Below, one piece after another: positions 12,550 to 18,207 of a stretch of DNA of 64,000 nt (positions within the stretch are counted from its first letter, which is position 1; each line of letters begins with the position of its first letter). The notes beneath the pieces are model-generated. The model made no database searches. It was not told where the DNA came from and saw only the letters and a list, made by a program, of their open reading frames with translations. The stretch is from the NCBI GenBank assembly GCA_017743535.1, contig JAGHYT010000002.1:22736-86735 (forward strand), read 5' to 3'. Source of the stretch: Chloroflexus sp. (GTDB lineage Bacteria > Chloroflexota > Chloroflexia > Chloroflexales > Chloroflexaceae). Position numbers and translations under genes: made by a program.

Positions 12550-15381
12550 ATGTCGCGTCCGCTTTTGATTTTGGTTGACGGTCATGCCCTGGCGTATCGG
12601 GCATTTTTCGCCCTGCGTGAGAGCGGCTTGCGTTCGTCACGTGGCGAGCCAACCTATGCCGTCTTCGGTTTTGCCCAGATTCTGTTGACGGCGCTGGCTG
12701 ATTATCGACCCGACTATGCTGCAGTTGCTTTTGATGTTGGTCGCACGTTTCGCGATGATCTTTATGCTGAATACAAGGCCGGGCGCGCCGAAACGCCAGA
12801 AGAGTTTTATCCACAGTTTGAGCGGATGAAACAACTGGTACAGGCGCTCAACATCCCGATCTACACTGCCGAGGGGTATGAGGCTGACGATGTGATCGGG
12901 ACGCTGGCTCGTCAGGCTTCTGCTCAGGGGATCGATACTATTATTCTTACCGGCGATTCCGACGTTTTACAACTGGTTGATGAGCACGTGCGGGTTGCGC
13001 TGGCAAATCCCTATGCTGGTAAGACAAGTGTCACCTTGTACGATGTTGAGCAGGTGCGCAAGCGTTACGATGGACTCGAACCGGCGCAGTTGGCCGATCT
13101 GCGCGGCTTGAAGGGTGATTCCTCTGACAATATCCCGGGTGTGCGTGGGATTGGTGAAAAGGGTGCAATTGCCTTACTCAAGCAGTTTGGTTCGCTCGAT
13201 CATTTGCTCGCGCATATCGATGAGGCCCCGAAGCGGTATCAGGCTCTGTTGCGTGAGCAAGGTGAGGATGCCCGTTTTTCGCGTCAACTGGCGACCATCG
13301 TGACCGATGTTCCTATTCAACTCGACCTGCATTCTTGTCGGTTGGGCACCTACGACCGGGCAGCAGTTATAGCACTCTTTCAGGAGCTAGAGTTTGGCGT
13401 TGCCTCTAACTTGATTAAGAAACTCCCACCGGTCATTCAATTGCCAACACCGGCGCCACTTCCGGCTGAACTTCCTGTCGCGCCACCCACCGATGAACCG
13501 ACGCAACTGGCACTCTTTAACGAGGACGGTGACTCGGCATCCAGTTTGCCAACCGCCGAGCCACCACCGGTGACGATTGTCCGCGATACGAGGGCATTAT
13601 CAGAACTGGTGGCACGATTGCGCGCAGCGCCTGCCTTCGCGTTCGACACCGAATGTACCAGTCTTCAACCAGTTATGAGTGATTTGGTTGGAATCTCGAT
13701 TGCGCTTGCCCCCGCTGATGTCTGGTATGTACCGATTGCTCATCGAGACGGTGAACAGGTGCCGCGCAACGAGGTGATTTCTGCCCTGGCGCCATTTTTT
13801 GCCGATCCGCAAAAACCGAAATTTGCCCACAATGCTAAGTTTGATATGGAGGTGTTGGCCGGAGCCGGGATTCGAGTTGCAGGGCTAACGTTCGATACCA
13901 TGATCGCAGCCGCCATGTTGGGGAAACGGCAAGGCTTAAAAGACCTCGCCTTCTACGAGTTAAAATTGCCTGAGCCGCCGACAACCATCGAGGATGTCAT
14001 CGGTCGGGGGAGCAAGCAGATCAGTTTTGCTGCGGTTCCTATCGAACAGGCTGCGCCGTATGCTGGCGCTGATGCGCTCTACACCCTACATCTGACCGAA
14101 CGATTACGCAGCCAGTTAGAGACTGATACGGCACTGCGCGATCTCTACTATCGGGTAGAGCTGCCGCTGATTGAGGTGCTGACCGAGATGGAGTTGGCCG
14201 GTATCTTGCTCGATCAGACGTATCTGCGCGAGTTGGGTGAACGTTTCGCCCAACGTATCAACGAAGTGGCCGAGCGTATCTACCAGCAGGCTGGCGGTCC
14301 GTTTAACATCAATTCGGGTCAGCGACTTAATGAAGTATTGTTTGAACGCATGGGCATTGATCCCCGTGCGCATGGATTAAGTAAGCTCAAAAGTGGCGGC
14401 TACTCGATCACTGCCGAGGTACTGGAAGAGCTGGCACAGCTCTACCCTATTGCGGCCGATATTCTAACCTATCGCCAGTTAACTAAGCTCAAGAGTACGT
14501 ATATTGATGCGCTTCCCGAACTGGTCAATCCGCGTACCGGGCGCATTCATACTTCGTACAATCAACTTGGTGCTGCCACCGGCCGTTTATCGTCAAATAA
14601 CCCCAATCTGCAAAACATTCCGGTACGCACTGAAGAAGGACGCGAGATTCGGCGCGCTTTTGTAGCTGCACCAGGATACCGTTTTATTGCTGCCGACTAT
14701 TCCCAGATCGAGTTGCGTGTCCTGGCTCATATCAGTGGTGATGAAAATCTGATTGCTGCGTTCAAGCAAGGGCTTGACATTCATGCCGCGACTGCGAGTC
14801 GGCTCTTTGGTGTAGAGCCGACAGCAGTCGATAAGAACCAGCGTCGGGTTGCCAAGACAGTGGTATTCGGCGTGATCTACGGCATCAGTCCTTTTGGCCT
14901 AGCGCAGCGGTTGGGCATCGAGCGCGATTTGGCCCGCCAATTGATCGATAATCTGTTTACTCAGTTCCCTGGTATCCGGCGCTACATCGATCAAACGCTC
15001 GACTTTGGTCGCCAACATGGCTACGTGCAAACCCTCTTTGGTCGCCGTCGCGTTGTGGAAGACCTGCGAGCCAGTGGTGCCCGTCGGGCTGCTGCCGAAC
15101 GAGAAGCGATCAATGCACCGATTCAGGGCACGGCTGCCGATCTGATGAAGATGGCGATGGTCAATGTCCATCGGGCGCTGCGTGAGCGTGGGTTGCGCAC
15201 CCGCCTGCTTCTACAGGTACACGATGAATTGATCGCCGAAGCGCCCGAATCAGAAGTGACAACGGCTGCGCAGCTCTTGCGTGATGTCATGAGTAATGTT
15301 TACAAGCTGGTCGTGCCACTGAACGTGAATCTTGAAACCGGCCCGAATTGGGAAGAGATGAGTCCGGTAGTGGTGGGGTAA
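12550..15381 (+). CDS. polA: DNA polymerase I
   Basis: 5'-3' exonuclease (LVDGHALAYRAF, GDSSDNIPGV), 3'-5' exo-like FDTE, polymerase motifs ADYSQIELR and QVHDEL. Confidence 0.98.
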   Translation: MSRPLLILVDGHALAYRAFFALRESGLRSSRGEPTYAVFGFAQILLTALADYRPDYAAVAFDVGRTFRDDLYAEYKAGRAETPEEFYPQFERMKQLVQALNIPIYTAEGYEADDVIGTLARQASAQGIDTIILTGDSDVLQLVDEHVRVALANPYAGKTSVTLYDVEQVRKRYDGLEPAQLADLRGLKGDSSDNIPGVRGIGEKGAIALLKQFGSLDHLLAHIDEAPKRYQALLREQGEDARFSRQLATIVTDVPIQLDLHSCRLGTYDRAAVIALFQELEFGVASNLIKKLPPVIQLPTPAPLPAELPVAPPTDEPTQLALFNEDGDSASSLPTAEPPPVTIVRDTRALSELVARLRAAPAFAFDTECTSLQPVMSDLVGISIALAPADVWYVPIAHRDGEQVPRNEVISALAPFFADPQKPKFAHNAKFDMEVLAGAGIRVAGLTFDTMIAAAMLGKRQGLKDLAFYELKLPEPPTTIEDVIGRGSKQISFAAVPIEQAAPYAGADALYTLHLTERLRSQLETDTALRDLYYRVELPLIEVLTEMELAGILLDQTYLRELGERFAQRINEVAERIYQQAGGPFNINSGQRLNEVLFERMGIDPRAHGLSKLKSGGYSITAEVLEELAQLYPIAADILTYRQLTKLKSTYIDALPELVNPRTGRIHTSYNQLGAATGRLSSNNPNLQNIPVRTEEGREIRRAFVAAPGYRFIAADYSQIELRVLAHISGDENLIAAFKQGLDIHAATASRLFGVEPTAVDKNQRRVAKTVVFGVIYGISPFGLAQRLGIERDLARQLIDNLFTQFPGIRRYIDQTLDFGRQHGYVQTLFGRRRVVEDLRASGARRAAAEREAINAPIQGTAADLMKMAMVNVHRALRERGLRTRLLLQVHDELIAEAPESEVTTAAQLLRDVMSNVYKLVVPLNVNLETGPNWEEMSPVVVG

Positions 15382-15470
15382 GACCTGGCGGAGATGGAGT
15401 TAGAGCCTGTCCGACCCTCACGCAATCTGCGACCAGGTTTAGGTAACGATGGGCATTATGCGGGCCATTT

Positions 15471-15556
15471 GTAGAGGCACGGCAGCGCCGTGCCCCAGGT
15501 GGTGCCAGGGCGGTGGTATGGACGTTTTGGTGGGGGGAAACTTGTTTCGCCCCTAC
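15471..15556. repeat. Inverted pair of GTAG-type REP palindromes (REPIN/BIME-like)
   Basis: GTAGAGGCACGGCAGCGCCGTGCCCC at 15471-15496, and the reverse complement of GTAGGGGCGAAACAAGTTTCCCCCC at 15532-15556. Confidence 0.75.
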
Positions 15557-15719
15557 CTACCGTTCATGCCATTAATCCCGTCAATACCGTCGATACGGTC
15601 AACGCATACGATTGTTGTAAACTGACGGCGTCGATACAATCGCTATCGGTGGTGCCGTCCACCGTCCGCGATGGACGCTCGCCATCATCCGGTTATCAAG
15701 AACTGGTACAGAATTGGAC

Positions 15720-16673
15720 CTATCGAGATTGAAGCATTTCAAGGAACGAATGCTGACTGACATCAGCATCGATTTCTAGCGATGCCAGCCGTGGAACCGC
15801 CTGGGTTGCCATCTCAACATAGGTGCGATGTCGTTCAACCCCAATACACGTCAGTCCCAACGATTCTGCTGCGGCGACCGTTGAGCCAGCACCCATAAAG
15901 GTATCAACAATGATCCCTTGACCAAGTGGCAGGACTGCGCGAACGAGCTGACGCATGAACGACTGTGGTTTGAGGCTCGGATGGTTAGCGATAGCCCGCT
16001 CGTTCTGTGGTGTTCGTTCACTGATGATCACGTCATTAAACGGTTGTTCTGTGCTGATACGGCGTAAGCCACCGGTACCATACGTGCGCAAGCAACCGCT
16101 GACCGTCATCCCCGGCGGAAGTGGGTTCCGGAAGATGCCCCATGGTTCGTAACAACTGCGTGGCAGCGAACAAACCTCTGGAAATTCGGCTTCAGCATGC
16201 TTGGGACGGTCGCCACCGCGAAATGTTCGCACGAGCCTGATAATAGCACCGCGGAATTCCAATCCTCCAGCTACCAGCGCCGAGAACACAAGCTGCGATA
16301 ATGAGGCGTTACTGGCGATAAAGATATGCCCCCCTGGCACGAGTGCGCGAGCTGCCAGCCTTCCCCATTCTTGAAAAAACGCAGATAGTCGCTCGCGTTC
16401 TTTAGGTGTGAGCGCCGTAAAGCGAGGCAGTGGTGCACGATGATGCCCATCGAATGATGGCGGTATTCGCCAGATACCGCCATTCCCATTGGCGCGTTTT
16501 TCAAGCTGTTCGAGGTCGAACTCTTTTACACCATAGGGTGGATCCGTTACAATTGCATGAACGCTTGCAGGCGGTATCCGGCGTAGCCATTCAAAACCAT
16601 CTGCCTGAATAACAACAGATGTGCTAAATGCATGAAATGGGTAATCAAAAGTAAACGGTTCCAGAGATTGCAT
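15720..16673 (-). CDS. Orphan amino-DNA methyltransferase (N6A/N4C, beta class)
   Basis: Catalytic TDPPY near the N-terminus, HPSLKP, and SAM-binding DTFMGAGST near the C-terminus (beta order). Start set at the ATG at 16673, one base after the upstream stop. Confidence 0.9.
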   Translation of the reverse strand: MQSLEPFTFDYPFHAFSTSVVIQADGFEWLRRIPPASVHAIVTDPPYGVKEFDLEQLEKRANGNGGIWRIPPSFDGHHRAPLPRFTALTPKERERLSAFFQEWGRLAARALVPGGHIFIASNASLSQLVFSALVAGGLEFRGAIIRLVRTFRGGDRPKHAEAEFPEVCSLPRSCYEPWGIFRNPLPPGMTVSGCLRTYGTGGLRRISTEQPFNDVIISERTPQNERAIANHPSLKPQSFMRQLVRAVLPLGQGIIVDTFMGAGSTVAAAESLGLTCIGVERHRTYVEMATQAVPRLASLEIDADVSQHSFLEMLQSR

Positions 16674-16674
16674 G

Positions 16675-16926
16675 TTATGCTGTGCCCCCTTCGATAGATG
16701 TACCAAGCTCGTAGACAGGGCTAAGTTCGTGGATCAGTTTTTCTAGTCGGCTTCGTTCTGTCGCATCTGCTGCCAGCAGACTCTTAAAATCAGCAATGCT
16801 TAGGATAATGGCCTGAGCAGTTTGTCGTCGGTAAACAACGTATCTTGTGTTCCGTTGAACAACGTCATCAAGGACGCGACCAAAGTTGTTTTGATCCTCT
16901 GTTGAGGCAATACGCTTTATGTTCAT
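16675..16926 (-). CDS. Phd/YefM family antitoxin-like protein
   Basis: N-terminus KRIASTEDQNNFGRVLDDV..R..YVVYRR..AQAIILS matches the Phd/YefM DNA-binding fold pattern. Confidence 0.75.
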   Translation of the reverse strand: MNIKRIASTEDQNNFGRVLDDVVQRNTRYVVYRRQTAQAIILSIADFKSLLAADATERSRLEKLIHELSPVYELGTSIEGGTA

Positions 16927-16944
16927 ATATGAAGAGTTGTGGTT

Positions 16945-16992
16945 ATATTAGCTAATATGGCTAATGATACAGATACACTTATCCGCTGACAA
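16945..16992 (-). promoter_or_regulatory. Sigma70-type promoter plus palindromic operator of the Phd-MTase operon
   Basis: Minus strand TTGTCA (16992-16987), 17 bp, TATCAT (16969-16964). Perfect 14-bp palindrome ATATTAGCTAATAT at 16945-16958. Confidence 0.65.
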
Positions 16993-17187: not shown

Positions 17188-18207
17188 ATGGATACCCAAC
17201 TACCAACCTTTTCCGTCGTTGCGCCGGTGTATAACGAAGAACAACTGATTGCCGAGTTTTGCCGTCGGGTGATCGCGGCGCTTGAACCACTCGGGGAGCC
17301 GTTTGAGTTGATCCTGGTAAATGATGGCTGTCGCGATCGTTCACCAGACATTATGCGTGAATTACATCAACGTGATCCGCGGATCAAAGTGATCAATTTT
17401 TCACGCAATTTTGGTCATCAGATCGCGATTACTGCCGGTACTGATTTTGCTAGCGGTCGGGCCGTCATTGTGATCGACTCCGACTTGCAAGACCCGCCCG
17501 AAGTCATTCCTGATCTGATAGCCCGTTGGCGAGAGGGGTATCAGGTCGTCTATGGCGTGCGCGAAGAACGTCAGGGTGAGACCTGGTTTAAGAAGACGAC
17601 CGCAGCGATCTTCTACCGACTGATTGTGCGGATCACGAATGTCAATATCCCGGTTGATACCGGTGATTTTCGCCTGATGGATCGTAAGGTGGTCGATGCG
17701 CTGAAACGCATGCGTGAGCATCATCGTTTTATGCGTGGTCTGTCGGCATGGGTTGGTTTTCGGCAAACAGGTGTGCTCTACCGTCGCCATGCCCGTGCTG
17801 CCGGCACAACCAAATATCCGCTGCGAAAGATGCTGCGCTTCGCGCTTGACGGTATTACCAGCTTTTCGTATTTACCGCTCCAACTGGCAACCTATGTTGG
17901 GTTCATTGTGGCTGCAATTAGCATCATCTTTTTGTTTGTGGTGTTCGTGATGCGGCTTTCTAATCCGGCAGCGACTGAACCGGCATTTTACGGTCAGGCC
18001 AGTACCCTGGCCAGTGTGCTCTTCCTTGGTGCTGTGCAGCTCATTTCACTCGGTATTATCGGTGAGTATGTTGGACGCATTTATGACGAAGTGAAGGGTC
18101 GGCCTCTGTACATTGTGGCCGAGACGTTAGGTATTGCTGAAACACCTGCAACATCGGCGGATGATGTTCGTACTACTCATAAGGAACAATCACCGGTAAT
18201 CAAGTAG
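17188..18207 (+). CDS. GT2 polyprenol-phosphate glycosyltransferase (GtrB-like)
   Basis: [36 protein letters not shown]; two C-terminal TM segments. Confidence 0.92.

Follow-up and report, generated by a model that had tools for sequence, protein, structure and literature searches.

We consider here a two-gene operon in a stretch of DNA from Chloroflexus sp. (the window, by which the whole stretch of 64,000 nucleotides is meant), where a small gene resembling the Phd/YefM antitoxins of toxin-antitoxin (TA) operons is followed directly by a DNA methyltransferase (MTase) gene, and where the trace of a restriction endonuclease (REase) gene lies on the opposite strand. The features of the locus, in the coordinates of the window, are as follows.

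16675..16926, minus strand: Phd/YefM-like gene of 83 amino acids (aa), an open reading frame (ORF) with a match to PF02604
15720..16673, minus strand: PF01555 N6/N4 DNA methyltransferase gene of 317 aa with the frame intact (ATG at 16673, stop at 15720)
15686..15732, plus strand: remnant of an REase gene, its last 15 codons (SSGYQELVQNWTYRD) and the stop, recognised by tblastn and by DNA collinearity with Chloroflexus sp. MS-G
16964..16992, minus strand: predicted promoter of the Phd-MTase operon, from a promoter scan and homologous loci
16940..16964, minus strand: predicted operator, with an exact TTAGCTAA box and degenerate boxes in 9-bp phase
15404..15685, no strand: filler of 282 bp, in place of 752 bp of the MS-G locus
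12550..15381, plus strand: polA, convergent to the MTase gene
start at 17188, divergent: glycosyltransferase gene

In the following, M and R denote the methylase gene and the REase gene, respectively, and R-M denotes restriction-modification. The ORF coordinates and the junction sequence, GGC ACA GCA TAA C ATG, in which the MTase start lies 1 nt past the Phd stop, bear out the statement of an initial annotation of the window that the 83-aa Phd/YefM-like gene ends one base before the MTase ATG. That annotation also placed the ribosome-binding site of the MTase inside the upstream gene, and a purine-rich AAGGGGG is present there, ahead of the MTase ATG. Its assignment of the MTase to the beta class of amino-MTases is upheld by the order of the motifs, with DPPY first and FxGxG last (TDPPYG towards the N-terminus, DTFMGAGST towards the C-terminus), and by the match to PF01555 (68 bits); the protein also matches the PADLOC profile MTase_II PDLC03215 (1.4e-101). 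Both the catalytic (D/S)PPY and the FxGxG for binding of S-adenosylmethionine, which a type II MTase requires, are present in the window ORF. On the other side of the MTase, the description as about 340 bp of repeats before a convergent polA is right as to the convergent polA and the length, with 338 bp between the polA stop and the MTase stop, but not as to the repeats: the gap is hardly repetitive, containing a weak 9-bp x 3.2 tandem (15574-15602), one 17-nt imperfect direct repeat and nothing else. Likewise, the statement that no REase or toxin is nearby stands for the toxin, no toxin family having been found, and needs a qualification for the REase, of which a trace lies at 15686-15732 in this gap.

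This trace can be read by comparison with Chloroflexus sp. MS-G (G327, NZ_JPIM01000046), which is the closest relative and is used as the reference locus. The window is 97.9% identical to MS-G over 18173-15686 and 91% identical over 15403-14690. Between these two collinear blocks MS-G has 752 bp with an intact 206-aa ORF, comprising the REase body and the region upstream of the REase, whereas the window has 282 unrelated bases. The 206-aa REase ORF of MS-G (L047:5195-5815) is convergent and is placed between the methylase and polA. When it is used as the tblastn query, 11/15 identities are obtained at the exact C-terminus, where the window remnant lies; the DNA collinearity restarts at 15686, and the remnant shares 13 nt with the 3' end of the MTase. 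Of the adjacent cognate REase gene that the relatives have, the window thus retains 15 C-terminal codons. A second copy of the REase is not found in the window's genome (98.5% complete), the same search detecting both positive controls, the full gene in MS-G and fragments with stops in G263. The window MTase is 97% identical to its MS-G orthologue: codons 1 to 285 differ by two substitutions, and further differences cluster in the 30 final codons, beside the deletion breakpoint. As judged from this comparison, the locus is taken to be a decayed type II R-M cassette, with the methylase orphaned here through deletion of the REase gene. A mobile or repeated element was considered for the filler and was rejected, since elsewhere in its own genome the filler is matched only in short pieces of 25-43 nt and since 15 other Chloroflexus genomes have no homologue of it. 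It is noted that in a third Chloroflexus (G263:C1:3041772-3043763, L024) the cassette lies at the same polA locus, with the Phd-like gene split, the MTase interrupted by stops and the REase in fragments. Three decay stages of the cassette are therefore found in one genus and at one locus.

The nuclease itself belongs to a family of proteins that has escaped annotation. In the flanks of the MTase homologues a conserved ORF of about 206 aa is present, convergent to the MTase and overlapping the MTase 3' end. The residues P99-D100 and E120-x-K122, which make up the PD-(D/E)XK signature, are invariant across 36 homologues. The AlphaFold2 model of the 206-aa protein has a predicted local distance difference test score (pLDDT) of 91.8 and a predicted template modelling score of 0.89, and its closest folds in the PDB are those of two REases, NaeI (E=1.3e-3, probability 1.0) and SfiI. 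PADLOC gives a weak REase_II match (3e-6), and sequence searches against Pfam, NCBIfam and the PDB sequences give no match; among the searches, it is thus only the fold search and, weakly, PADLOC that point to the nuclease identity. With the signature and the modelled fold, the 206-aa protein is a predicted PD-(D/E)XK REase which, together with its constant convergent place beside a type II MTase, would make a classical type II R-M pair. The family comprises at least 3,596 sequence clusters, has no Pfam or NCBIfam model, and every named match in it is annotated as 'hypothetical'; complete R-M systems of the 206-aa type are therefore read as orphan methylases. On this basis annotation pipelines would list thousands of whole R-M systems under orphan methylases and, moreover, the methylase-adjacent Phd-like genes under orphan antitoxins.

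With the alignment of the Phd-like proteins as the query, and each GTDB species represented by one genome, 80 loci were obtained, each from a different species, nearly all belonging to Chloroflexota (Chloroflexaceae, Roseiflexaceae, Caldilineaceae, Anaerolineae, Ardenticatenaceae). The Phd-like gene, M and a convergent R are all intact in 39/80 loci; M is intact with R partial or absent, which is the state of the window, in 13/80; M is broken in 6/80; this MTase family is absent in 14/80; and the contig ends cut the locus in 8/80. Among the 52 loci where the REase could be assessed it is intact in 39. Directly downstream of the Phd-like gene lies a DNA methylase in 76/78 assessable loci, the MTase being of the window's family in 64 of the 80 loci and another PF01555 MTase in 12 more. 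The Phd-MTase pairing is far beyond chance. By contrast with canonical antitoxin operons, toxin families (Doc, YoeB/RelE, PIN and the like) were not found downstream of the Phd-like genes. Besides the arrangement of the window, 4 loci have an SPPY-type MTase of about 290 aa with a convergent REase of the 292-aa type (PADLOC REase_II PDLC03531, 6e-33); 6 loci have an MTase of about 450 aa, some of these MTases being truncated or cut by the contig end, with a convergent Eco29kI-family REase (PF09517, 1e-49 to 2e-62) where the flank is intact; one locus has two MTases and one has a 438-aa MTase.

The arrangement is compact throughout. The distance from the Phd stop to the M start is between -11 and +23 nt in 50/55 loci, and the 3' ends of M and R overlap by 4-57 nt in 41/42 loci, leaving therefore no space for a terminator between them. 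The neighbourhoods of the cassettes are unrelated between genomes, which fits a mobile module. From this conserved order of genes, the Phd-like protein is taken to be part of the R-M cassette, and its subfamily is one dedicated to R-M systems. Note also that there are two loci without any MTase, L108:4001-4252, with a P-type ATPase downstream, and L119:2614-2895, with no evident downstream gene. The solo Phd-like genes of both keep the promoter and the TTAGCTAA box, and may be all that is left of a cassette since lost.

The small protein matches the profile of the Phd/YefM family. The confirmation by profiles that the initial annotation called for was obtained for the MTase (PF01555) and, with PF02604 (PhdYeFM_antitox), for all 26 aligned members of the subfamily (best 1.9e-11), and the window protein itself matches PF02604 with E=1e-6 and 28.8 bits, just under the gathering score of 29.8. 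A precomputed PF02604 match is present in 30/31 database homologues. PF02604 is the only significant Pfam family of the protein, with no helix-turn-helix (HTH) family matched, and a profile search against the PDB sequences gave only noise and no Phd/YefM chain. The AlphaFold2 monomer built from the 26-sequence alignment has a pLDDT of 51, too poor for a fold search, with an order of elements (E4-6, H11-25, E29-31, H44-52, H55-68) that is compatible with the Phd/YefM fold, a beta-alpha-beta-beta-alpha dimer ending in a C-terminal helix or tail. Two segments are conserved in the subfamily. The first is a near-invariant N-terminal segment, K-x-I-(A/S)-S-T-x-A-Q-N-N-F-G-R-(V/I)-L (motif IASTExQNNFGR), which fits one shared operator. 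The second is a C-terminal motif, (R/K)E-x-x-P-x-Y-x-L-G (PxYxxG), which is present also in members serving different R-M systems. Homologues of the Phd-like protein were not found in plasmid and phage collections at E<=1e-5. The two other PF02604 genes of the genome (G000:C22:1401-1625 and G000:C66; L005 and L006; 74 aa, up to 109 aa) have no obvious toxin gene in their short flanks, and as canonical controls they were set aside as uninformative for this reason.

Upstream of the Phd-like gene, the window has a promoter with -35 TTGTCA (16992-16987), a 17-nt spacer and -10 TATCAT (16969-16964), the -35 of the MS-G orthologue being the consensus TTGACA. In 75/80 upstream regions there is a sigma-70 promoter close to the consensus (TTGACA-N16-18-TAnAAT, 3 mismatches at most), at 27-56 nt, mostly 32-46 nt, from the Phd-like ATG. 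Straight after the -10 there are one to three perfect TTAGCTAA palindromes, 9 bp from start to start, at offsets 0/+1, +9/+10 and +18. In the window, the exact palindrome is at 16948-16955, which is its sole exact copy in the 64 kb, and degenerate boxes flank it in 9-bp phase, e.g. TTAGCCAT at 16957-16964; the predicted operator begins at the -10 and spans the expected transcription start, which is placed at about 16957. An exact box is found in 59/80 loci and a box with at most one mismatch in 75/80. The locus sequences, 565 kb in all, contain 73 exact boxes, and 71 of these sit within 70 nt upstream of a Phd-like ATG. The boxes precede the Phd-like gene in the R-M contexts of types A, B, C, D and E alike, and none of the 24 Phd-less M-R loci has an exact box. 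Upstream of R the operator was not found, the two one-mismatch boxes near R starts being consistent with chance. It is noted that in the 4.46-Mb genome (G000) the word occurs in 10 copies versus 74 for the reversed control word AATCGATT. This rarity could simply reflect avoidance of words containing CTAG/TAG, and no conclusion is drawn from it.

The methylase is widespread: grouped at about 70% identity, its homologues make up more than 8,000 clusters. Within the phylum its distribution is patchy: it is present in 55/401 genomes and, among the 13 congeners of this 401-genome sample, in 10, several of them with pseudogenes. Of 29 loci sampled from the phylum, 24 are without the Phd-like gene; the MTases there are 52-72% identical, and most are accompanied by an REase. 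As MTases without the Phd gene are common, the MTase needs no antidote. The homologous R genes are also found intact without Phd (e.g. L010, L013, L019), so that the nuclease, too, does not need the Phd-like protein. In some of the Phd-less M-R pairs an XRE HTH is fused to the MTase N-terminus (HTH_31, 7e-17; L025 = G335:C112), while some other homologous pairs carry neither a Phd-like gene nor an N-terminal extension. With the Phd-like gene, a fused XRE HTH or another extension ahead of M, the 5' slot of M would therefore be taken by interchangeable DNA-binding modules. The other extension, of about 80 aa, is seen in homologous MTases of 52-55% identity (L033/L026/L029); with the sequence GRVRDGILQVMSFTSKGLTAKEI... 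and no Pfam match, it is possibly a winged helix.

Based on these data, we consider it likely that the window holds a decayed type II R-M cassette in which the Phd-like protein acts as a dedicated autorepressing regulator rather than as the antidote to a protein toxin. The model is as follows. The ancestral layout would be a promoter and operator, the Phd-like gene, the M gene and a convergent R that overlaps M at their 3' ends; in the genome of the window, R was deleted with 282 bp in its place, leaving the orphan methylase and the regulator as a Phd-M operon. A dimer or higher oligomer of the Phd-like protein would bind the phased TTAGCTAA palindromes from the -10 across the transcription start, and the binding would repress the synthesis of the Phd-like protein together with that of the translationally coupled methylase. 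After entry into a naive host, the strong promoter would first be unrepressed, giving rapid methylation, while read-through from the Phd-M operon into the convergent overlapping R would hold R back. As the Phd-like protein builds up, the operon would be throttled to a maintenance level and the expression of R would be relieved. The comparisons show the anatomy of the locus, the REase loss, the conserved triad, the layout of promoter and boxes, the exclusive joint occurrence of box and protein and the link of the subfamily to several unrelated R-M systems. That the Phd-like protein binds DNA and autorepresses the Phd-M operon is strongly suggested by the architecture of the promoter and boxes. 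The timing of R through convergent transcription is the weakest step, and we infer it less firmly, from the overlap of the genes. The alternative that the initial annotation offered in second place, Phd co-opted as the controller of a solitary methylase, is thus retained in its regulatory part, as the subfamily is dedicated to R-M systems, always lies upstream of M and has a conserved palindromic operator, but not in its second part, because the methylase is not primarily solitary.

The wider form of the proposal is that Phd/YefM-fold proteins are a second, unrecognised family of R-M controllers with their own phased TTAGCTAA operator, recruited in Chloroflexota by no fewer than four type II R-M systems that are unrelated to one another, always ahead of the methylase gene, and forming a direct homology link of the TA antitoxins with R-M regulation; here the methylase may be a co-repressor, and the convergent transcription of M and R may delay restriction. 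To this wider form we give a somewhat better than even chance.

The conserved C-terminus makes it necessary to weigh readings in which the Phd-like protein works on a protein partner. One is that it works also or mainly through the methylase, the C-terminal PxYxLG binding the PF01555 protein, either as a co-repressor with a conditional cooperativity as in TA systems or with the MTase activity modulated, so that the ratio of M to regulator would be sensed. This reading, which is compatible with DNA binding, agrees with the motif being kept across members that serve different R-M systems and with every directly downstream partner gene being a tightly coupled PF01555 MTase, and it has a precedent in the canonical Phd/YefM C-terminus, which, according to references given in PMC3874152, binds the downstream product acting as co-repressor. 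However, the partner MTases range from 273 to 464 aa and do not share one order of motifs, either DPPY/SPPY or FxGxG coming first, so that a common docking surface is not evident, and L108 and L119 keep the Phd-like gene, the promoter and the box without any MTase; we regard it as a minority possibility, unlikely though worth keeping in mind. A true antitoxin of the REase, inhibiting R directly, e.g. during establishment in a new host, is also conceivable from the facts that R-M systems act as addiction modules with R as the toxin, that the Phd family classically neutralises a toxin and that the C-terminal motif is conserved. But the same motif stands beside unrelated nucleases (the 206-aa PD-ExK protein, the GIY-YIG Eco29kI-type and the 292-aa PDLC03531 protein), the gene is coupled to M and not to R, R is intact in the Phd-less L010, L013 and L019, and the Phd-like gene is kept where R is gone, in 13 loci and the window. 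Since the motif accompanies unrelated nucleases and the gene persists without R, direct neutralisation of R is very improbable.

The reading put first in the initial annotation was that of a TA-like or anti-phage module, with the MTase as a toxic effector and Phd as its antidote. The antitoxin-toxin-like order of the genes and their translational coupling are what speaks for it. The two-gene order is indeed conserved, in 76/78 assessable loci, and the pairing is not unique to this genome. Against it, the cognate REase is intact in 39/52 assessable relatives, to which the remnant in the window is added; MTases 52-72% identical occur without Phd in 24/29 sampled loci; and by its profile (PDLC03215, 1.4e-101) the methylase is an ordinary type II enzyme. 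That annotation had itself held that an REase in homologous loci, with a decayed remnant here, would speak against the toxin, and this is what is found. We therefore consider a toxic MTase neutralised by Phd as the least credible of the readings, with hardly any probability left to it.

Against the proposed autorepressing regulator itself several points must be put. The window's own Phd-like protein falls 1 bit short of the Pfam cut-off, and its fold is assigned from the Pfam profile and from how the secondary-structure elements follow one another, the AlphaFold2 model being poor (pLDDT 51). The conserved C-terminal motif is unexplained by plain DNA binding and hints at a protein partner. The operator is predicted from conservation only, and since there is no box upstream of R, any control of R must be indirect. 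The metatranscriptome evidence given below consists of assembled contigs that are without strand information and may contain DNA. Furthermore, a few loci with the Phd-like gene (the L071/L072/L074 type, L014 and L023) are without a recognisable TTAGCTAA and show TGGCTAA...TTAGCCA-like inverted repeats after the -10; these repeats may be a variant operator co-varying with the protein.

It is instructive to compare the cassette with known systems. According to a 2025 review, R-M systems are regulated by promoter methylation, MTase-repressor fusions, antisense RNA and HTH controller (C) proteins, Phd-type regulators being unmentioned (PMC12707154). The statement in the initial annotation that R-M controllers are normally of the XRE HTH type agrees with this review, where the controllers are all HTH proteins or HTH domains fused to the MTase. 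In the searchable full-text literature, with REBASE outside the scope, nothing pertinent to a Phd-type R-M controller was found. Like the C proteins (C.PvuII, C.BamHI, C.AhdI, C.Esp1396I, C.Csp231I, C.Kpn2I), the Phd-like protein is small and cassette-encoded, is predicted to be an autogenous DNA-binding regulator, is reused modularly by unrelated R-M systems, and has a conserved operator at its own promoter across R-M systems, analogous to the C-box. Unlike these XRE-type HTH proteins, it matches the Phd/YefM antitoxin profile. Moreover, a C gene normally stands ahead of R, shares its transcript and encodes an activator of R, whereas the Phd-like gene precedes M, with R convergent and box-free upstream. 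In Esp1396I and some others, a C protein represses the M promoter in a layout with C-R convergent to M (PMC3488213; PMC12707154). The TTAGCTAA operator with its 9-bp phase is not known to be related to any C-box, as far as an unsystematic comparison goes.

A second likeness is to M.SsoII, M.Ecl18kI, M.EcoRII and M.MspI, in which the M promoter is repressed by a DNA-binding module that directly precedes the catalytic MTase part, as is predicted here; in one relative of the window's M-R pair (L025) a fused XRE HTH occupies the position of the Phd-like module. Unlike in these fusions, the Phd-like module is a separate, translationally coupled polypeptide of a different fold family. With Phd-Doc and YefM-YoeB it shares the PF02604 match and the place as first gene of a tight bicistron, and the predicted operator resembles those of yefM-yoeB and phd-doc in its paired or phased palindromes overlapping the promoter; YefM and Phd are autorepressors at paired palindromes according to references cited in PMC3874152. 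The differences are that the downstream gene is an R-M DNA methyltransferase and not a Doc, YoeB, RelE or PIN toxin, that the lethal component (R) is convergent and unrelated to TA toxins, and that the subfamily is a tight clade with its own invariant motifs. Finally, like other orphan MTases that arise from R-M decay, the window MTase has an intact frame beside a deleted REase, while the clade-wide orphans of the CcrM or Dam type are conserved and the window MTase is patchy, has pseudogenes within the genus, keeps a dedicated regulator and has homologues that mostly stand with an REase.

On these comparisons we see in the cassette a type II R-M system whose proposed controller differs in fold from those known and stands ahead of M, and the window locus is a decayed member of it. 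For this genome it is a case of ordinary R-M decay with the nuclease lost, and the interest lies in the regulator family that is revealed. A comparison of R-M and TA regulation in 2013 expected that the two might still turn out to be homologous (PMC3874152); if our proposal is true, a Phd/YefM-type regulator with its own operator, common to several R-M systems, is the expected link. The cassette would also be a compact genetic switch that combines a consensus promoter with a phased palindromic operator and with M and R genes that converge and overlap.

The R-bearing and the R-less (filler) alleles are both present in metatranscriptome assemblies of hot-spring mats. The R-bearing allele, with 748 letters between 15403 and 15689, is found in runs X17 and X1, and the R-less allele of the window in runs X2, X5 and X1; the window MTase is covered by such contigs. 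The contigs indicate the presence of both alleles and probably their expression. The window's Phd-like protein has an A11D substitution (window 16895), unique among the 80 homologues, within the near-invariant STEAQNNFGR motif, and the contigs agree with MS-G at both the D11 and the -35 position. A11D and TTGTCA (window 16895 and 16989), being absent from the contigs, may be strain-specific, may reflect relaxed selection after the loss of R or may be assembly errors. In addition, one R-less contig (run X2) lacks a single base of the MTase, at 16329; this may be an assembly error, or some of the population may carry a frameshifted MTase.

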